Below are positions 1,031 to 12,797 of a DNA stretch of 13,392 nt, piece after piece. The stretch covers positions 1 to 13,392 of the forward strand of contig JALVPN010000107.1 in NCBI GenBank assembly GCA_027031765.1. Reading direction: 5' to 3'. This stretch comes from Promethearchaeota archaeon (GTDB lineage: Archaea > Asgardarchaeota > Thorarchaeia > Thorarchaeales > Thorarchaeaceae). The notes under the pieces were generated by a model. That model was not told the DNA's origin, ran no database searches, and saw nothing but the letters and a program-made list of their open reading frames with translations. The position numbers and the translations under genes were made by a program. Positions within the stretch are counted from its first letter, which is position 1, and each line of letters begins with the position of its first letter.

Positions 1031-1495
1031 GTGACGGCCACTACTCAGAGAGCAGCGTCGCGGACAAAGGCTAAGGAGCGGGCGCGCTTCGAGCCACGGA
1101 TTGTCGCCTTCTGTTGCAACTGGTGCTCATATGCGGGGGCCGACCTTGCGGGTACCAGCCGGATGCAGATGCCCCCGAACATCAGGATCATCCGGGTCAA
1201 CTGCACCGGCCGTATTGACCCGAGCTTCATCCTTGACGCTCTGTACGAGGGTGCGGACGGCGTACTGGTCTCAGGCTGTCATCCGGGGGACTGTCACTAC
1301 ACGAGTGGAAACCTCCGGATGCGTTCCCGGTACGTCCTCCTGAAGAGACTGCTCGAACAGGCCGGGATAGAGCCCGAAAGGGTGCACCTGCAGTGGGCGA
1401 GCGCAGCCGAGGGTGATGTGTTTGCCCAAGGGGTGACGGACATGGTCGAGCGGATACGCCGGCTGGGCCCGAACCCGGTGAGGAGGCGGAGATGA
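1031..1495 (+). CDS. mvhD: Methyl viologen-reducing (F420-non-reducing) hydrogenase subunit D, [2Fe-2S], Cys form
   Basis: Motifs PRIVAFCCNWCSYAGADLAG, RIIRVNCTGRID, GADGVLVSGCHPGDCHY, ERVHLQWASAAEG. Start set at GTG 1031 (GGAGG at 1016-1020). The ORF-track extension 800-1030 is low-complexity and probably non-coding. Confidence 0.92.
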   Translation: MTATTQRAASRTKAKERARFEPRIVAFCCNWCSYAGADLAGTSRMQMPPNIRIIRVNCTGRIDPSFILDALYEGADGVLVSGCHPGDCHYTSGNLRMRSRYVLLKRLLEQAGIEPERVHLQWASAAEGDVFAQGVTDMVERIRRLGPNPVRRRR

Positions 1496-1496
1496 G

Positions 1497-2408
1497 ATGA
1501 CCAAGAGGGCCGCTTTTGCACAGCTGTCATCGTGCTGGGGCTGCGACCAGTCCCTGGTCGACCTACACTTGAAACTGCTGGATGTCCTGCCGGAGCTTGA
1601 GATAGTGTACTGGCCCGCAGTCGTCGACTACAAGCTGAAGGACCTTGAGAACCTCCCAGACCGTTCCATCCACTTCGGGTTCGTGGAGGGCAGCTGTCGG
1701 ACGCGGGAGGACGAACACCTCCTTAGGACAATGCGTGCAAAGAGCAAGGTGCTTGTCGCATGGGGCTCGTGCTCATGCTACGGTGGTGTACAGGGCCTGG
1801 CCAACCAGTGGACACTGAAAGAACTGCTGGAACGCAAGTTCCTCAAGGCAGAGACCATCACTGATGGCAGGATTCCGGACGAGAACGTGCCCGGTTTCAA
1901 AGAGGACATACGGCCGAACCCGGACGTCGTGCCCTTCGACGTACTGCTCCCCGGGTGTCCGCCCACCAGCGACAACACAGCGGAGGCACTGTCGGCCCTC
2001 CTTGCAGGACAGCCCTTCGACCTCCCGGAGAAGACCGTGTGCGACCAGTGCCCAAAGGTGCGGGAGGAGAAGCATATCAAGGTCGTCCACAGGACGCACG
2101 AGGGGAAGGTCGACCCGGAACGCTGCCTCCTCGACCAGGGGTACCTGTGCCTCGGGTTTGCGACCATCGGGATGTGCGGTGCCCAGTGCCCCAGCGTGAA
2201 CACACCGTGCAAGGGGTGCTTCGGGCCTCCACCGGGGATAAAGGACCACGGGGCCAAGATCATCTCGGCACTCGGGGCCATCGCAGAGATGTCGCCAGAA
2301 GAGCTCAAGGAGGCGTTCCCTGACCCGCTGGGCTCGTTCTATTTCACGGACTATGCAGCATCGTACCTGTCACGACTGGTCGGGCACACCAAGGAGGAGG
2401 AACAATGA
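1497..2408 (+). CDS. mvhG: Group 3c-type [NiFe]-hydrogenase small subunit (MvhG/VhuG)
   Basis: Proximal cluster motifs SSCWGC, WGSC and PGCPP; distal Cys-rich part CDQC...CLLDQGYLCLG...CGAQCPSVNTPCKGCFGP. Starts 1 nt after the mvhD stop. Confidence 0.92.
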   Translation: MTKRAAFAQLSSCWGCDQSLVDLHLKLLDVLPELEIVYWPAVVDYKLKDLENLPDRSIHFGFVEGSCRTREDEHLLRTMRAKSKVLVAWGSCSCYGGVQGLANQWTLKELLERKFLKAETITDGRIPDENVPGFKEDIRPNPDVVPFDVLLPGCPPTSDNTAEALSALLAGQPFDLPEKTVCDQCPKVREEKHIKVVHRTHEGKVDPERCLLDQGYLCLGFATIGMCGAQCPSVNTPCKGCFGPPPGIKDHGAKIISALGAIAEMSPEELKEAFPDPLGSFYFTDYAASYLSRLVGHTKEEEQ

Positions 2409-3718
2409 CGGACGAGAGAGTGATAAGGGTCGAGCCGGTCACACGGCTTGAGGGGCACGGCGAGCTCACAATAAGACTCGGCACAGACGGCAAGGTCAGG
2501 GCTGTCCAGTTCAACGTCAGCTCGACACGCTTCTTTGAGAAGTTCCTTGAGGGTAGGTATGCGGAGGAGGCGCCACGGATAGCCCCACGGATATGTGGCA
2601 TATGTCCGGAGCCACACCACCTCGCGTCCGTGAAGGCGGTCGAGGCCGCATGGGGTGTGCACCCACCAGCACCAGCAGTCAAGCTCAGGCGCCTGTTGAT
2701 AAACGCCAAGCAGTATAGCAGCCACGCCCTCCACTTCTTCGCACTCGCAGCACCCGACTTCCTTGCCGGCCCACTGGGCGAGCCTGCCAAACGCAACGTG
2801 GTCGCAATAATCAAGGCGCTACCAGACGTCGGGAAGATGGCGTTGCAGGTGATGCAGTTCGGACAGGAGCTGGCTGCCGCGGTGGGTGGAAAGGCCATCC
2901 ACCCTGTGACAGCAGTGCCAGGCGGGATGATGAACCCGTTCTCCGAAGAGAAGAGGGACGAGTTCCTCAAGAGGGCAGAGCAGGCAATGGAGTGGACGGA
3001 GAGGACCCTCGACCTGGCAAAGAAGGTCGTCGAGGACTACTGGGACGTGGTCACCAAGTTCGCCGTCGTGCCCACGTACTACCTTGGGATGCACAACAAG
3101 GGCGCACTGGAGATCTACGACGGTAAGCTGCGGGTGATGAGCCCGGAGGGCGAGGTCGTGGAGGACTTCAACCCGAAGGACTACCGCAAGTACTATGGTG
3201 AGTATGTCCCTGACCACTCGTACGCCACCCACATATACTACCGGCCGGTGGGCTACCCGGAAGGCATCTGGCGCGCGAACAGCCTTGCACGCATCAACGT
3301 TGCTGACAGGATGGCAACACCCAGGGCACAGGAGGCACTGGAGGAGATGCGCGAGAGGCTCGGGAGGCCCATACATGCCACCTTCGCGTACCACTGGGCA
3401 CGGGTCATCGAGCTGGTGCAGGCGCTGGAAGAGATCACAGTCCTCCTGGAAGACCCTGACATTGTGAGCACGGATGTGAAGCTGTCGGACGTCGAGCCCA
3501 GACGGGGTGAGGGTGTGGGCTGTGTCGAGGCCCCACGGGGCACACTCGTACACAACTACTGGACTGACGAGCGTGGCATCATAACAAAGGCGAACCTTGT
3601 CGTTGCCACGAACAACAACATTGCCGGCATTGAGAAGAGCCTCCTCCAAGCTGCAAGGCAGGTGTTCGAGGAGCACGCACACGAGTCGTTCTCGCTCCCA
3701 AGACCGATGATACCATAG
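2405..3718 (+). CDS. mvhA: Group 3c-type [NiFe]-hydrogenase large subunit lacking the C-terminal L2 motif (VhuA-like)
   Basis: EPVTRLEGH, L1 motif PRICGICPEPHH (C64, C67), VEAPRGTLVHNY, ANLVVAT. ATGA overlap with the mvhG stop. Ends ...QVFEEHAHESFSLPRPMIP with TAG and no DPCxxC. Confidence 0.92.
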   Translation: MTDERVIRVEPVTRLEGHGELTIRLGTDGKVRAVQFNVSSTRFFEKFLEGRYAEEAPRIAPRICGICPEPHHLASVKAVEAAWGVHPPAPAVKLRRLLINAKQYSSHALHFFALAAPDFLAGPLGEPAKRNVVAIIKALPDVGKMALQVMQFGQELAAAVGGKAIHPVTAVPGGMMNPFSEEKRDEFLKRAEQAMEWTERTLDLAKKVVEDYWDVVTKFAVVPTYYLGMHNKGALEIYDGKLRVMSPEGEVVEDFNPKDYRKYYGEYVPDHSYATHIYYRPVGYPEGIWRANSLARINVADRMATPRAQEALEEMRERLGRPIHATFAYHWARVIELVQALEEITVLLEDPDIVSTDVKLSDVEPRRGEGVGCVEAPRGTLVHNYWTDERGIITKANLVVATNNNIAGIEKSLLQAARQVFEEHAHESFSLPRPMIP

Positions 3719-3860
3719 TCGGTACTACCGGTAGCCCACTGCGGGAGCACCCGTGTGTACAGGCACCCACCAGCGTGACCTGCACTCAGTACTGTCAGTT
3801 GTTTGTACGTGGCGGCGTCACCGCCCCCGGCCCTGGACACCACTGGTGGGTACCACTTGT

Positions 3861-6767
3861 TCACTCGATGAAGAGGGACACCCTGCCGGGGAGTGCCGAC
3901 TTGGCCTTTCCCTGTGGGTCGTATTCCGGGTCCTCAGAGTCGTGGACAACGACTTCCAGCCCCAGTTCACGGCTCATGTACGGTATGGACGCCCTGAGCG
4001 TGGCCATCTCGTCGGCCGCTGACGCAGAGTGCACCCACAGGCCGTTCTCCTTTGCAATCCGGTCGACAATGGCCTTGACCCTCTTCCCGTACTTGCGGAA
4101 CTCCTTGTTGGCCATGAGGTGCTTCATGATCACGCCGACGTTTATCTGCAGGCCCGCCTCCTCGATGCTGTTCATGGCCCTGAACATCCACTCGGGCGCC
4201 ACGTAGATGTGCACCATCTGTGGTGTCTTGCCCTTCAACAGGCTGAGGATTTCCCGGACATCCCGGATTGTCGACTCGACCACTTCGTGGGCGGCCTCAA
4301 CGGACGGGTCGACAAGCGCGTCGTCAGGACGTGGCCATGGGGCCAGTGACACGTAGCCCTCACGTCCCATGTGTTCCCACAGCTCCTCACAGATGTGGGG
4401 CATCATGGGGGCTGCCAGCCTGACCCACCTGTCACAGGCGTATGCCATTGCTGCAGGGAGTTCCTCGACCGGCACATCAGGGCGTTTCAGGTAGTGGTTG
4501 ACCACACGCAGCATCTCTGTGGTGACGGTGAGTGCGTAGTCCCGCAGTCTGAACGAGTCGAGGCTCTCGGTACTCACACGTACCAGTGTGTTGACCTTTG
4601 ACAGGAACCACCGGGTGACGGGTGATAGGGACGACGCATCACTGACCTCAGGTGCGGCGCCGGTGCCGTGTTCCCGTACGATCTCCGCAAACTGTCGCAG
4701 GCGGCTCCGCACTGTTGGCACGTCCTTCTCGCGCCAGTCCATGAGGGATGCCGGCTCGGCCGCAGAGACCGCATATGTGCGGTAGACATCAGCGCCGTAC
4801 TTCTTTGGTATCTCGACCAGTGGTATCACGTTCCCCTTGCTCTTCGACATCTTTGCGCCCTCCATGTTCACGTGCTCGTTGAGGCTGATGCACTTCAGCC
4901 AGTGCTCCTCGGGAAAGATTGCGACGTGGTGGAATATTGCGAAACTGAGGTGGTTGGTGATGTGAGAGGGCGCAGTGTGGCGCTGGTCATTGGGGTACCA
5001 GTACAGGAACTCCTGACGCATCCTCTCCAGCAGCTCAACAGGGACCCCCGTTTCCTCGGCCACCTCCTCCACCTTGCCGGTGCCCAGGAACACGTAGTCG
5101 AAGAAGGAGAGCGTCAGCTGTTCGGGCTTGAGGCCGTTGCTGGTGATGTGGTGTGAGATTGTATAGTACGCCATGTAGATTGTAGAGTCGGACAGTGACT
5201 CTATGATCCACTCCTCATCAAAGGGCAGTGGTGTCCCAATACCGCGCTTGCGGGCGCAGGGCCGCTGTGCCAGCCAGTCGAACGTGGCCTCGAACAGGTT
5301 CCTGAACACGGACGGGACAATGCACATGGAGTCCAGCGCCTTCCTTGCGGTCTCCTTCCAGCCGGGGCTGGTGTAGTCGAGGAACCACTGGCCAGCAAAG
5401 ACACCCACCTGGACATCAGTGCCACACTTGCAGACCACTGGCCGCTGGTCGGGCTCGTAGAACACATCGGCACGGTTGACTGAACGCAGCCACTTGACGA
5501 CCTCGTCCTTCACGTCCCGGATGTACCTGCCGGCGAACTGGCCACAGTTGTCCTTCATGACGCCCTCGTAGAACTCGGCCTTGTAGATCTCCTGGGTGGC
5601 GTCCTCAAGGGCCTCGGTGTCTACCTGTGACCGGATGCCGCGCTTCTCCACGGCGTCCTTGCCGGGGAACTCGCTGTACCCCTTGATGTCAATCATGCTT
5701 ATCATCTGGATACCACGCACCTCCTCGGGGTCGATGCCGTACTCCTTGAGCGGGGCCGGGTCGTCCCAGAGGTCGCGCAGGGCAATGTAGTCGAAAGGCG
5801 CGTGGCCTGGAACAGAGTACACGACACCGGTGGCATTGTCCGGGTCGACGAACTCTGCTGGCAGGACAAGCAGCTCGATGCTCTCATCGTGGACCGCGTG
5901 GAACCGTTTCCCCACCACCTCTGAGCCGGGGAACGTCTCCAGCACCTCCACGTCCTTGGCCTGGAGCCTCAGCTTCTCTGCTGCCGACTTGGACACCAGC
6001 CACTTCTCGCCGTTGACGCGTGCCCAGACGTACTCGGCAGTCGGGTGGATCCACATGTTGGTGATCCCGAACACGGTCTCAGGACGCAGGGTGGCCGGGA
6101 CAATGAAGCCGTCCTCAAAGGGGAACTTGATGGCGGTGAACTCCTTGACCTTGGCGTTGGCACCTTCCAGCAGGTCGTCCTCTCCAACAGGGTTGCCACA
6201 GTTGGGGCAGTACAGCAGTGGATAGTCGCCCTGCTTGATGTACCCCTTGTCCATGAACTTGTGGTACTGCCAGCGGATGAACTGGCTGTACGTGGCATCG
6301 CCCGTAGTGAACTTGCGCCGCCAGTCAATGCCGTAGCCCAGTGCCTTGAAGTCCGCAGAGATGGCGTCCGCGAAGAACTTGGCGGTCACCCACGGGTCGG
6401 TGAACTTGGCCAGCTGGGCCTCCACCTCCTCCTCGGTCTCAAGGTACAGGCGGAGGTCACGCTTGTACTGTTCGATTGCCTCAGGATCACCAGCCTTTAT
6501 GCGCTCGACCATGCCGAATATGGGTGTCCCGGTCATGTGCGACGCCATCGGGAAGAGCACGTTGTAACCGCACATCCTCTTGTAGCGTGCAATCAGGTCA
6601 CCGACCGTGTACGTCCGGCCATGGCCGATGTGAAGTGCTCCATTCGTGTACGGGTAGGGTACGGTCAGGAAGAACTTGGGCCGTGAGGGGTCCGGGTCGG
6701 CCTCGAATATACGGTCACGGGCCCAGCGTTCCTGCCACTTCTTCTCAATCTCAGCGAACTCACTCAT
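3861..6767 (-). CDS. leuS: Leucyl-tRNA synthetase, archaeal type
   Basis: PYPYTNGALHIGH (HIGH), KMSKSKGN, editing-domain motifs ATLRPETVFG and TGVVYSVPGHAPFDY, C-terminal KAKSALPGRVSLFIE. ATG 6767 with GAGG upstream is preferred over TTG 6776. Confidence 0.97.
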   Translation of the reverse strand: MSEFAEIEKKWQERWARDRIFEADPDPSRPKFFLTVPYPYTNGALHIGHGRTYTVGDLIARYKRMCGYNVLFPMASHMTGTPIFGMVERIKAGDPEAIEQYKRDLRLYLETEEEVEAQLAKFTDPWVTAKFFADAISADFKALGYGIDWRRKFTTGDATYSQFIRWQYHKFMDKGYIKQGDYPLLYCPNCGNPVGEDDLLEGANAKVKEFTAIKFPFEDGFIVPATLRPETVFGITNMWIHPTAEYVWARVNGEKWLVSKSAAEKLRLQAKDVEVLETFPGSEVVGKRFHAVHDESIELLVLPAEFVDPDNATGVVYSVPGHAPFDYIALRDLWDDPAPLKEYGIDPEEVRGIQMISMIDIKGYSEFPGKDAVEKRGIRSQVDTEALEDATQEIYKAEFYEGVMKDNCGQFAGRYIRDVKDEVVKWLRSVNRADVFYEPDQRPVVCKCGTDVQVGVFAGQWFLDYTSPGWKETARKALDSMCIVPSVFRNLFEATFDWLAQRPCARKRGIGTPLPFDEEWIIESLSDSTIYMAYYTISHHITSNGLKPEQLTLSFFDYVFLGTGKVEEVAEETGVPVELLERMRQEFLYWYPNDQRHTAPSHITNHLSFAIFHHVAIFPEEHWLKCISLNEHVNMEGAKMSKSKGNVIPLVEIPKKYGADVYRTYAVSAAEPASLMDWREKDVPTVRSRLRQFAEIVREHGTGAAPEVSDASSLSPVTRWFLSKVNTLVRVSTESLDSFRLRDYALTVTTEMLRVVNHYLKRPDVPVEELPAAMAYACDRWVRLAAPMMPHICEELWEHMGREGYVSLAPWPRPDDALVDPSVEAAHEVVESTIRDVREILSLLKGKTPQMVHIYVAPEWMFRAMNSIEEAGLQINVGVIMKHLMANKEFRKYGKRVKAIVDRIAKENGLWVHSASAADEMATLRASIPYMSRELGLEVVVHDSEDPEYDPQGKAKSALPGRVSLFIE

Positions 6768-6822
6768 TGTGGACAACCTCGAAAAGTACAGACCACGGGC
6801 GAGCCGGTGGTGGCGGCATGGC

Positions 6823-9751: not shown

Positions 9752-9838
9752 CCGTTAGATGCAGTCCACCACTTTCTGGCCCCATCCGGGGCCACCACCT
9801 TCTTCTTGCTGTTCGTACAGAACTGTGATGGTCATACC

Positions 9839-10618
9839 ATGGAACAGATACTTGTCGTGCTGTGTGGTATCCCTGCATCAGGAAAGAGCACCCTTGCCAG
9901 GGAGCTGGCAAGCCGCATGCGGGCCGAGCGCCAGACATGCATTGTGGACACAGACCGCTGGCGTGCAGAGGTGTACGGTGGATCGTTCAGCCCGGAGAAG
10001 GAGCGGCTCGTACGGGGGCTCTCCCTCAGGGAGGTACGCGAGTGCCTCCGGCGGGGATGGGACGCGGTCCATGACGACACGAACTACTATGCAAGTATGC
10101 GGCACGACCTGCGTCAGGTCGCCTTGGAGGAGGGGTGCCGGTTCGGCGTCGTGCATGTGGCAACACCGCTGTCAGTGGCCCTCGGGTGGAACCGCACACG
10201 GCCCAACATGGTGCCAGAGCATGTCATCAGGAAGATTGCCGAGAGGCTCGACGTACCGGGACAGAAGTATGCATGGGACCGTCCGGTGGCGACCGTAGAC
10301 CTTGCAGTGACAGGTGTTGAAGAGGCAGCAGGGCGAGTACTGCGGGCACTGAGACAGCTTGCGCGTGGACGGGAGCGACGAGTGACACACGGTACGCACG
10401 CAGAGGAGCTTGACCGTACGACGAGAGGCGTTGTCCGACAGTTCCTCAGCGAGCATCTGGAGATGATGGGGGAGCCGGCAGTGCACCGTGCCCGTAAGGA
10501 GGTGCTCCGACAGGCCCTGAGAGAGGGGCGTCCGCCGTCCTGGGCGGCAAGGGAGTTGCGACTGCGACTACGTGGGGTGTTGGACAGGGCGGAGGAGGAC
10601 AGGACAGGCAGTGCCTGA
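9839..10618 (+). CDS. pstK: O-phosphoseryl-tRNA(Sec) kinase
   Basis: Walker A GIPASGKST, plus DDTNYYASMRHDL and RLDVPGQKYAWDRP, which match archaeal PSTK as I recall it. Stop is 30 nt from the tRNA-Sec 3' end. ATG 9839 preferred over 9806. Confidence 0.92.
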   Translation: MEQILVVLCGIPASGKSTLARELASRMRAERQTCIVDTDRWRAEVYGGSFSPEKERLVRGLSLREVRECLRRGWDAVHDDTNYYASMRHDLRQVALEEGCRFGVVHVATPLSVALGWNRTRPNMVPEHVIRKIAERLDVPGQKYAWDRPVATVDLAVTGVEEAAGRVLRALRQLARGRERRVTHGTHAEELDRTTRGVVRQFLSEHLEMMGEPAVHRARKEVLRQALREGRPPSWAARELRLRLRGVLDRAEEDRTGSA

Positions 10619-10648: not shown

Positions 10649-10739
10649 TGGCGGCTTCCTCAGAGAATCGAACTCTTATCGCTTGCGCGATCACGGGTTT
10701 GAAGCCCGCGGGGCCGGACCACCGGTCCTGGAGGAAGCC
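10649..10739 (-). tRNA. selC: tRNA-Sec (anticodon UCA), 91 nt, archaeal/eukaryotic 9/4 fold, CCA encoded
   Basis: Minus strand: GGCTTCCTC CA GGACCGG TGGT CCGGCCC CGCGGG CTTCAAA CCCGTG ATCGC GCAA GCGAT A AGAG TTCGATT CTCT GAGGAAGCC G CCA. This gives a 9-bp acceptor stem, 7-bp D stem (one A.C mismatch) with 4-nt loop, 6-bp anticodon stem, long variable arm, 4-bp T stem and G discriminator. Confidence 0.96.
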
Positions 10740-10800: not shown

Positions 10801-11457
10801 CTAGGCCGGGATGAACTTCTGCAGTAACTTGGAGGTCTCCTGTTTCCACTCGACCGACTTCTTTGCAAGTGCTGTTGCGAAGTCGCCTGGTAGTGGCTGG
10901 TCACGTGGCATGGACTCGAGCTTCTGGAGCCAGGGGGTGGTAGACAGTGGGAGGGGGTGCATGTCGCCACCCTCGATGGCCCTGATGAACATCTCGCGGC
11001 CGTGGGCCACTTGGATGTAGATGGCCTCAGCAGGGGCCCTGGTGAGGACAAGGTGCACGATACGGTCCCAGCAGGTCCTCGCGATGAGCGCCCGCTGCAG
11101 GCGTGTCTTCTGGACCTCGTCCAGTTGTCGGTACGAGACGAGGGCGTCCCTAAGACTGTTGGCAAGACCCTCGACGTGGCTGGTGAGTACGGACTCGTCA
11201 TCACCGTATGACGTTATCTCTGCTGCCTTCTGGGCCTCCTCGACCCACACTCTGACCGTGACCTCGTGGTCGTCAAGCTTGCCTGTGAACAGTGCTTTGC
11301 CCTTGAAAATGGTGCTCTCGGCCTCACTGTGCTCACTCAGGACAAAGCCCGGCTGCGCCGTGACAAAGTGCCATGCAATCCGGAACACGACTGCCGAGTC
11401 TGGGATGTCATATGTGACTGAACGTGACACCTTGATCCTGTCATCCATCTCTTCCAA
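10801..11457 (-). CDS. Hypothetical protein, 218 aa (215 aa from ATG 11448), inside the Sec cluster
   Basis: Protein-like composition; fills the gap between SepSecS (29 nt) and tRNA-Sec (61 nt) on the same strand. TTG 11457 or ATG 11448 start; TAG stop. No family recognised. Confidence 0.8.
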   Translation of the reverse strand: MEEMDDRIKVSRSVTYDIPDSAVVFRIAWHFVTAQPGFVLSEHSEAESTIFKGKALFTGKLDDHEVTVRVWVEEAQKAAEITSYGDDESVLTSHVEGLANSLRDALVSYRQLDEVQKTRLQRALIARTCWDRIVHLVLTRAPAEAIYIQVAHGREMFIRAIEGGDMHPLPLSTTPWLQKLESMPRDQPLPGDFATALAKKSVEWKQETSKLLQKFIPA

Positions 11458-11486: not shown

Positions 11487-12797
11487 CTATTGAGCAACCG
11501 CCTTATAGAGTTTGGTGGTAGCTCTCTCCACATCTTCGCGGCGAGCACCGATGGCCGCATTCATCACAATATAACTGTGTGGGTAGCCATCGATGCACGA
11601 GCCGTGGGCGCCCCTCTCCACCGCACGCGGGCCAGTGACCCTCAGGTTGTACAGTCGCGCACCGACCGCCCTCACATCGTGGCCGTCAAGTGTCAATGCG
11701 CAGGCAACGGGGTTCCAGACATCAAGGAGCTCCTGTCCAATGGACCCCGCAATCTCCCTGAGCCGTTTCTCAAGTAGGGCGCGGTTCTCTGCCTGTTCGC
11801 GTCGCAGTCGCTCGTAGCCCGAGTGTCCCAGCAGGAGCAGTGCCACGAGGGTCTGCAGGACTGGTGCTGCGGACGCACGCCCTGCGTAGGAGCCCGCAAC
11901 CGTATCTATGACCTCGCGGCTCGGCGAGACCACAACAGAGGAGCCGACGGGGGCCAGGAAGTTCTTGTCGCCGCTCTGGACAATGGCATCCACACGGCCA
12001 CCATCAATGGCACGACGGAGCATGTCCATGATGTCGGGGGACTGTATGCCATAGGCATTGTTGACGACAAGCGGGACATCGTGGTCAGCACAGGTCCGCG
12101 CGACCTCTCTCACAGGGTCTGGCTCCCGTGGTGGGAAGAAGGTGGTCGTGCACAGGACGGCACAGTGTTCACGACTGCGGACTGCACGCGCCACCACATC
12201 GGGGTCCGCGCGCACTGCATCGCCCTCGAGCACCGTCGGCAAGGTGACCACCTCAAGGCCTGCAAGACGCACCCCTTTGACCGGTGACGTATGGTCGATA
12301 CGTGGGTGGAGGACACAGCGCACCCCAGAGGCCTGTCGCAGGGCCGACATCACGAGCGCAATGCTCATCCCGGTGGCCATGGGCGTCACAAGGCCGGCAC
12401 GGACATTTGGTAGGCCCAGTCTGCGGGCAGCATCAGTGGCCACATGGTCGGCCAGACGCTGCATTGATGATGCCCCCGGGGCCTTTGGCTGCGGTGCAGT
12501 GAGATGACCACTACGTCCCACGCCATGGTTGAAGCCGCATGACAGCCTGTCGAGGAGTGGGGATACGACACGTCCCTCACGCTCGCCCACGCGGGCTGCC
12601 CCGGGGTCCTTGTCAGAGTCCATGGAGGAGAGGAGCCCGACCAGGAGCCCGACCTGGCGTTCCGAGAGGGGGACATCCGGGAACCTCTGACGGGCCAGCA
12701 GGTCACGGATGGGCGCCACTAGCGCGTCCAGCGTGATACGGCCGCGTGCGGCCATGCCTGGTGGCAACACGTCACTGAGCCAGCGTTCAATGTCCAA
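11487..12797 (-). CDS. spcS: O-phosphoseryl-tRNA(Sec) selenium transferase (SepSecS)
   Basis: RVGEREGR, FNHGVGRSG...PQPKAPGAS, PMATGMSI, VNNAYG and PLP-lysine motif QSGDKNFLAPVG (K278). TTG start overlaps the selB stop by 11 nt. Confidence 0.94.
   Translation of the reverse strand: MDIERWLSDVLPPGMAARGRITLDALVAPIRDLLARQRFPDVPLSERQVGLLVGLLSSMDSDKDPGAARVGEREGRVVSPLLDRLSCGFNHGVGRSGHLTAPQPKAPGASSMQRLADHVATDAARRLGLPNVRAGLVTPMATGMSIALVMSALRQASGVRCVLHPRIDHTSPVKGVRLAGLEVVTLPTVLEGDAVRADPDVVARAVRSREHCAVLCTTTFFPPREPDPVREVARTCADHDVPLVVNNAYGIQSPDIMDMLRRAIDGGRVDAIVQSGDKNFLAPVGSSVVVSPSREVIDTVAGSYAGRASAAPVLQTLVALLLLGHSGYERLRREQAENRALLEKRLREIAGSIGQELLDVWNPVACALTLDGHDVRAVGARLYNLRVTGPRAVERGAHGSCIDGYPHSYIVMNAAIGARREDVERATTKLYKAVAQ

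Follow-up and report, generated by a model that had tools for sequence, protein, structure and literature searches.

How can a split hydrogenase work when the gene for its smaller part is missing from the operon? In Methanococcales, an enzyme divided between VhuA and VhuU is textbook knowledge. The operon considered here lies near the start of a 13,392-nt contig from a Thorarchaeota-like Asgard archaeon (JALVPN010000107.1, or C107; the whole contig was analysed and is called the window). Its vhuA gene is present and vhuU is not. The contig belongs to a metagenome-assembled genome (MAG; G000) from a hydrothermal vent metagenome, with 2.95 Mb, 59% GC, 229 contigs and 95.3% completeness. This genome carries two paralogous Vhu operons, A in the window and B on contig C115, and the composition of both contigs is consistent with the genome. 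We propose, with a probability of roughly 60%, that VhuU is shared in trans, so that one B-linked peptide would serve both the A-type and the B-type VhuA; we infer this assembly from sequence comparison.

The window encodes a naturally split large subunit

The open reading frame (ORF) at 2405–3718 on the + strand encodes 437 amino acids, with the first metal-binding motif (L1), RICGIC, at residues 61–66. The C-terminal part of the protein reads ANLVVATNNNIAGIEKSLLQAARQVF, then EEHAHESFSLPRPMIP, up to the TAG codon at 3716–3718, and the protein ends in ...SLPRPMIP. A first-pass annotation of this DNA had described a large subunit with an intact L1 that ends at this TAG before its second motif (L2), and had found neither L2 downstream nor a simple frameshift. 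Both descriptions agree with our reading of the ORF and with a six-frame motif search of C107, which returned nothing. The break coincides with the end of VhuA as it is known from Methanococcales: residues 7–421 align with positions 4–417 of the solved 418-residue protein (9sfi_g, E 8.9e-132), and positions 4–417 of 418 in the NCBIfam VhuA profile (NF041785) are covered. On the full-length MvhA (5odc_F, 473 aa), the window VhuA covers 4–411 and the VhuU described below covers 425–452. The alignments thus bear out the earlier reading of a naturally split, VhuA-type large subunit. With a score of 485.9 bits, below the NF041785 equivalog cut-off of 800 bits, the protein is VhuA-like and of a distant lineage, and by the NCBI threshold it is no equivalog.

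The early stop is shared by relatives. The best 120 homologues listed are 432–445 aa long, bar one 389-aa fragment, and the organism labels among the matches listed are Thorarchaeota, save one Odinarchaeota. A 5143-nt Logan contig (run X1) spans window positions 2400–5400, including the vhuA–leuS junction, with 0 differences and 0 gaps; this run probably represents the source sample and counts as a second assembly, not as independent data. Run X3 of the same study covered almost none of the stretch. Because the Logan contig crosses 2400–5400 without a difference, the junction is no product of the MAG assembler. The early vhuA stop is real.

The tail behind the split point had been taken as possibly lineage-specific. 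It is not confined to this genome, and counts as an extension, of 16 residues, only when set against the Methanococcales VhuA. The tail-end motif LP(D/E)P(M/L)(I/V/M), followed by 0–2 residues, closes 13 of 15 other A- and B-type VhuA proteins compared across the order, with deviations in G009 (LPEPKI) and in the window protein itself (LPRPMIP, R for D/E). All 16 A- and B-type proteins in the comparison carry RICGIC.

No vhuU in the window

In the vhuDGAU gene order, vhuU lies directly 3′ of vhuA. This arrangement was found at the paralogous C115 operon and not in the window. The pattern [DE]x[C/U]xx[C/U]xx[H/R] has no match in six frames of C107 with TGA read as selenocysteine (Sec), and neither tblastn with the genome's own VhuU nor the NCBIfam VhuU profile NF041786 detected anything in the window. 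A covariance model of the vhuU 3′ end and the selenocysteine insertion sequence (SECIS), run with filters off, reached a top window score of just 14.8 bits, at an unrelated site. As for alternative ligand donors, the two small ORFs upstream of the operon, 449–694 (−) and 114–467 (−), both lack a CxxC, and no conserved alternative CxxC peptide was found around the A locus.

A single vhuU ends the paralogous operon

The canonical pattern DP[C/U]xxCxx[H/R], searched genome-wide in six frames with TGA as Sec, identified just two other hydrogenases (C91 and C127), in their own C-termini. It missed a vhuU on C115 because Cys and not Pro precedes the Sec; the motif RAYDP[C*]xxCxxH that the first-pass annotation had put forward for this search would have passed over the real RCYDC-U-LSCGAH as well. 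The C115 gene (Table 1) is the last in an operon with the order HdrA-MvhD-HTH-VhuG-VhuA-VhuU (HTH, helix–turn–helix). Its product starts with MTEEIPEG, contains RCYDC-U-LSCGAH with the Sec as U23, and aligns with the 27-residue chain 9sfi_M, which has an X (Sec) at the same position. Against NF041786 it scores 44.5 bits, below the cut-off of 70, and it has the membership features of that family, namely UxxCxxH, an in-frame UGA and a length of ~45–50 aa. A relaxed regular expression, tblastn, the NF041786 profile and the covariance model agree that the assembly holds one copy. The VhuU gene had been predicted to be unlinked. It is indeed a tiny Sec gene off the window operon and followed by a 3′ SECIS; the assembly holds no second, dedicated vhuU, and this one copy sits in the paralogous operon.

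The covariance model has a sole match in the genome, at C115:5034–5130 (96.7 bits). The element is laid out as AUGA, a stem of 8–9 bp, a loop GUAAAG.., GGAC, a small hairpin and a lower stem, and its AUGA core includes the UGA stop codon of vhuU itself. In an alignment of 11 loci, compensatory changes occur in 11 of 26 pairs. Structure and covariation predict that the element is a eukaryote-like SECIS able to direct Sec insertion. Rfam, searched with E values up to 10, reported no SECIS family for it and only chance miRNA and PhotoRC matches.

The VhuU of Thorarchaeota differs from related sequences around the Sec. Set against RAYDP-(U/C)-xSC of the Methanococcales VhuU and of MvhA/FrhA, RCYDC-U-LSC has two extra Cys residues, one of them directly before the Sec. 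Both are invariant in 29 of 29 copies read, and patterns based on DP[CU] miss such genes.

vhuA with and without vhuU across the order

VhuU and the window VhuA served as queries against 87 genomes of the order. The VhuA proteins form two paralogue groups, A (the window type, 73–83% identical to the window protein) and B (the C115 type, 64–72%), which the VhuA tree separates with support of 100/100. Wherever the contig allows a view, vhuU is the next gene after B-type vhuA, genus g15 excepted. The A group is divided: of 34 full-length genes, 17 are directly followed by vhuU and 16 are not; the one remaining gene sits at a contig edge. For 11 of these 16, the absence was read in fetched sequence (G000, G003, G005, G008, G012, G025, G026, G033, G041, G053 and G054); for the remaining five (G006, G028, G034, G037 and G033:C78), the contig runs on for at least 487 nt and gave no vhuU match. 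In 12 genomes, including ones that are 97–98% complete and consist of 10–30 contigs, the A-type vhuA lacks a vhuU and the B-type vhuA has one. Two vhuA genes and one vhuU are present in the near-complete G003 (98%, 10 contigs), in G005 and in G026. G008 and G012, also among the 12, have one further vhuU each, beside neither vhuA, so that not all 12 are strictly 2:1.

The vhuU-less state is found in many genera with differing downstream genes. No SECIS relic was detected at six vhuU-less loci searched with the model (L009, L010, L015, L017, L027 and L028) or in the window. The inner branches of the VhuA tree are too weak for counting independent vhuU losses: 4 changes are needed, of which 1 is forced by well-supported branches. 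At the window locus itself, the state looks like a deletion, because L012, a LeuRS-syntenic metagenomic relative (81% identical; LeuRS, leucyl-tRNA synthetase), keeps vhuU and three genes between vhuA and leuS.

The reverse state also exists. In genus g15, G077 and G078 have a B-type vhuA without vhuU and keep the A-linked vhuU. In G079 (98% complete), the only vhuA is B-type and lacks vhuU, and an orphan vhuU with a SECIS is found at L029:2246–2395 (−) (G079:C34:77745–77894); its context is that of the A locus (Fer4-AFOR-AsnC-like), from which mvhD-vhuG-vhuA are deleted. G008 has an orphan vhuU with a SECIS at L013:2754–2903 (−) (G008:C28:8253–8402), behind HdrA-MvhD-HTH and with vhuG-vhuA absent. 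One of the 17 A-linked copies, in G009 (L025 ~1420–1560; G009:C63:34318–34458), encodes a Cys variant, DCCLSCSAF, with Phe for His, and has no SECIS.

A partial match to VhuA was seen in G010, a relative with a single 3.2-Mb contig. At G010:C1:2636009–2636737 (−), only VhuA residues 1–243 match, with 66% identity, inside a 611-aa frame; the gene may have been fused or rearranged. No vhuU was found in G010.

VhuU copies look interchangeable

The 18-residue core of VhuU, LNL[L/I]EMVVRCYDCULSC[G/A]AH, has two variable positions and is conserved in 29 of 29 copies read. Over the C-terminal 27 residues of the mature peptide, the A- and B-linked VhuU are identical in 6 of the 11 genomes that have both; the others differ at 1–4 N-terminal positions. 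No residue that distinguishes A-linked from B-linked VhuU was evident on inspection. At the nucleotide level, within-genome pairs of vhuU cassettes in G014, G074 and G076 are 86–91% identical, and the between-genome mean is 78%. On these comparisons, the A- and B-linked copies look interchangeable.

Of the 216 columns that do not vary among VhuU-linked copies, 198 are also kept by the A-type VhuA proteins that lack a linked VhuU; the other 18 show scattered changes, each in a single lineage. The rate of nonsynonymous change (dN) in VhuA is 0.05–0.19, and that of synonymous change (dS) is saturated in most pairs (NG86); the ratio ω was obtained for four pairs only, at 0.015–0.056. These estimates indicate that VhuU-less VhuA is under strong purifying selection and not decaying.

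Proposed completion in trans and its rivals

The window encodes MvhD–VhuG–VhuA, the core of a Vhu-type [NiFeSe] hydrogenase in group 3c whose large subunit is naturally split. In the mechanism we favour, VhuA would give two N-terminal Ni/Fe ligands (RICGIC), and the remaining two, a Sec and a Cys, would come from a separate peptide of ~29 residues, cut from the 50-residue VhuU precursor. The A operon would have lost its own vhuU and the genome would have kept the B-operon copy. The A-type enzyme would then be completed in trans by the lone VhuU from C115, with the in-frame UGA read as Sec under the SECIS. We favour sharing over mere displacement of VhuU because the sole copy in the assembly ends the paralogous C115 operon.

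Several points weigh against this proposal. The physical pairing of A-type VhuA with B-linked VhuU is itself inferred from comparison, and the Logan contig across the junction probably comes from the source sample. The main difficulty is posed by three genomes, G025 (97% complete, 20 contigs), G033 and G053 (both 83%): A-type vhuA is intact and SepSecS is encoded, but neither vhuU nor B-type vhuA was detected in them even at E ≤ 10. Either these assemblies lack the gene, or A-type VhuA can persist in the absence of VhuU. Some 5% of the window's genome is unassembled and may hold another vhuU, an orphan as in G008. In that case the 2:1 ratio would only reflect incompleteness, with a dedicated or orphan vhuU in the unassembled or unbinned part. 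An assembly of 229 contigs at 95.3% completeness leaves room for this, orphan vhuU genes away from any vhuA exist (G008, G079), and in several relatives vhuU lies at a contig end (G012:C56, G073:C40, G046:C10). However, a vhuU adjacent to the window vhuA is impossible because the contig runs on into LeuRS, and the same pattern of A without and B with vhuU recurs in the 12 genomes described above, including the most complete ones; we regard such a hidden copy as unlikely. We consider it slightly less likely again that A-type VhuA works without VhuU altogether. It would then either serve an MvhD/VhuG redox module without catalysis or with different ligands, or draw on a ligand donor that has so far escaped recognition. 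The three genomes without a vhuU match suggest this, as does G009, whose Cys/Phe variant without a SECIS implies that the peptide tolerates change. Yet a [NiFe] site requires four Cys/Sec ligands, and the retention of RICGIC and of 198 of 216 invariant columns is hard to explain without a metal site; no conserved alternative CxxC peptide was found around the locus, and two of the three supporting genomes are just 83% complete. The stricter version, in which lineages like G025 need no VhuU and use the two N-terminal Cys or another donor in a different metal site or a non-hydrogenase scaffold, is a little more doubtful still.

The remaining readings question the gene rather than its partner. The window vhuA could have been orphaned not long ago and encode a truncated pseudo-enzyme, without function and bound to disappear: the vhuU that belonged to it is missing, and in G079 and G008 entire mvhD-vhuG-vhuA blocks have been deleted. 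However, the frame is intact, the translational coupling to vhuG is kept, dN is low and dS saturated over six VhuU-less lineages of different genera, and changes at invariant columns are only scattered and confined to single lineages, all of which makes decay very improbable. An error of assembly or sequencing that cost the gene its C-terminus, or the operon its vhuU, is harder still to credit. The window is a MAG contig from a vent metagenome, and the syntenic L012 has vhuU and three genes between vhuA and LeuRS; against this, the stop position is conserved in the close homologues (the best 120 listed), the Logan contig is identical over the junction, no SECIS or vhuU relic is left, and the same state appears in many genera with differing downstream genes.

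The window operon and its neighbours

The features of the window and the C115 vhuU are collected in Table 1. The genes mvhD, vhuG and vhuA are co-directional and closely packed on the + strand, with vhuD and vhuG upstream of vhuA and an overlap of 4 nt between the vhuG stop and the vhuA start. The mvhD gene probably starts at GTG 1031, preceded by GGAGG, as judged from the codon listing and from relatives; the listed start at ATG 800 would add ~77 residues that are rich in Pro, Gly and Arg, not protein-like and without counterpart in relatives. Features of group 3c (Mvh type) are present, namely a large subunit homologous to MvhA (5odc_F, E 1.6e-112) with FlpD and Oxidored_q6 neighbours. No hdr genes were found in the window, in which the contig begins ~1 kb upstream of mvhD. 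Upstream of the operon, the two small − strand ORFs form a divergent gene pair.

Table 1 Features of the window (C107) and the vhuU gene on C115
Feature	Position	Strand	Evidence and remarks
Conserved ORF of no named family, 117 aa (105–106 aa in relatives)	114–467	−	Present in L009 and L010/L011; not called in L012
AsnC_trans_reg-like small ORF, 81 aa from GTG (72–78 aa in relatives)	449–694	−	Conserved at this place in every relative examined
MvhD/VhuD-like iron-sulfur subunit, all-Cys (CCNWCSY)	1031–1495	+	Pfam FlpD E 4.3e-55; NCBIfam VhuD 149.5 bits
VhuG-like hydrogenase small subunit	1497–2408	+	Pfam Oxidored_q6 E 3.2e-22; NCBIfam VhuG 265 bits
A-type VhuA, split-type [NiFe(Se)] large subunit, L1 RICGIC, without L2	2405–3718	+	NCBIfam VhuA 485.9 bits; PDB 9sfi_g E 8.9e-132
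Intergenic spacer between convergent vhuA and leuS, 142 nt	3719–3860		vhuU, SECIS and relics of either not found
Leucyl-tRNA synthetase (LeuRS), convergent; marks the 3′ boundary of the operon	3861–6776	−	Pfam tRNA-synt_1, Anticodon_1
PSTK; Sec decoding capacity	9806–10618	+	Pfam KTI12/AAA_33; syntenic with tRNA-Sec in three other genera
tRNA-Sec, anticodon TCA	10649–10739	−	ARAGORN
SepSecS	11487–12797	−	Pfam PF05889 E 7.7e-113
Archaeal SelB (aSelB), C-terminal part, cut by the contig end	12787–13392	−	Pfam aSelB_III E 1.4e-9
vhuU, 50 codons, one in-frame TGA, stop TGA	C115:4907–5059 (= L007:1958–2110)		25 nt after the B-type vhuA stop

The Sec island that had been noticed in the same stretch of DNA is confirmed by its PSTK, tRNA-Sec, SepSecS and the end of aSelB. 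Between SepSecS and tRNA-Sec lies a further ORF of 218 aa (10801–11457, −), which occupies the same place in the Sec islands of G025, G003 and G026 with 44–54% identity. It has no Pfam family, and a Protein Atlas search gave no usable match. Asgard archaea have a eukaryote-like SECIS and, to our knowledge, no known SBP2. Because the 218-aa ORF is conserved inside the Sec cluster of organisms with no known SBP2, it is a candidate Sec-pathway factor.

Relation to known hydrogenases and significance

The closest known arrangement is Vhu of Methanococcales (vhuD-G-A-U; solved structures PDB 9sfi/9t1s). Both systems have the same split point, a small Sec peptide that gives the last two ligands, and VhuD and VhuG encoded upstream. 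Unlike in Methanococcales, vhuU is not the next gene in the window, and its only copy follows a paralogous vhuA. The Thorarchaeota system also differs in having RCYDC-U where Methanococcales have RAYDP-U, a 16-residue C-terminal extension of VhuA, an all-Cys VhuD and a SECIS that is eukaryote-like, not methanococcal; VhuA and VhuU both score below their NCBIfam cut-offs. The MvhADG-HdrABC complex of Methanothermococcus thermolithotrophicus (PDB 5ODC) shares with the window operon its group 3c character, a homologous MvhA (E 1.6e-112) and the MvhD and MvhG partners. Its MvhA is a single 473-aa chain with DPCxxCxxH and a Cys ligand, whereas the enzyme described here is split and uses Sec; moreover, the window operon has no adjoining Hdr gene on a contig that starts 1 kb upstream. 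In the C115 B operon, HdrA precedes the hydrogenase genes. Methanococcus has a second paralogous F420-non-reducing hydrogenase beside Vhu, the Cys isoenzyme Vhc, with a full-length VhcA and Cys ligands. In contrast to Vhc, the two paralogues here have divided large subunits and seem alike in needing a Sec-containing VhuU.

Within the Asgard archaea, a Sec-containing VhuU with a eukaryote-like SECIS is described for Lokiarchaeota and Thorarchaeia in Mariotti et al. 2016 (PMC4989117) and a study in ISME J 2024 (PMC11227280); AUGA doubling as the stop codon is given for Lokiarchaeota, and the apical loop G[U/G]AAA of the SECIS for Thorarchaeia. The C115 gene resembles the VhuU described there in its length of ~50 aa with Sec, its AUGA as stop, its GUAAA loop and its place beside VhuA/VhuG. 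In the passages of both papers that catalogue vhuU and SECIS, we found no mention of vhuU-less vhuA paralogues, a 2:1 ratio or orphan vhuU. The split Vhu with a Sec-containing VhuU in Asgard archaea is thus already published; the 2:1 arrangement, the reciprocal losses and the orphan vhuU were not found in the literature searched, and only the 2:1 arrangement appears to be new.

Because the split and the Sec-containing VhuU were already known from Asgard archaea, the gain is incremental: a variant in gene dosage and linkage, together with natural 'experiments' (G079, G077/G078 and G008) that argue for use of VhuU in trans. If one selenopeptide of ~29 residues does complete two large subunits, vhuU with its built-in SECIS would be a free-standing active-site cassette, and selenium supply or vhuU expression would gate both hydrogenases together. 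Annotation pipelines will label such large subunits as truncated or overlook their partner, with consequences for how H2 use is reconstructed in the metabolism of Asgard archaea and, through that, for the hydrogen-based models of eukaryogenesis.

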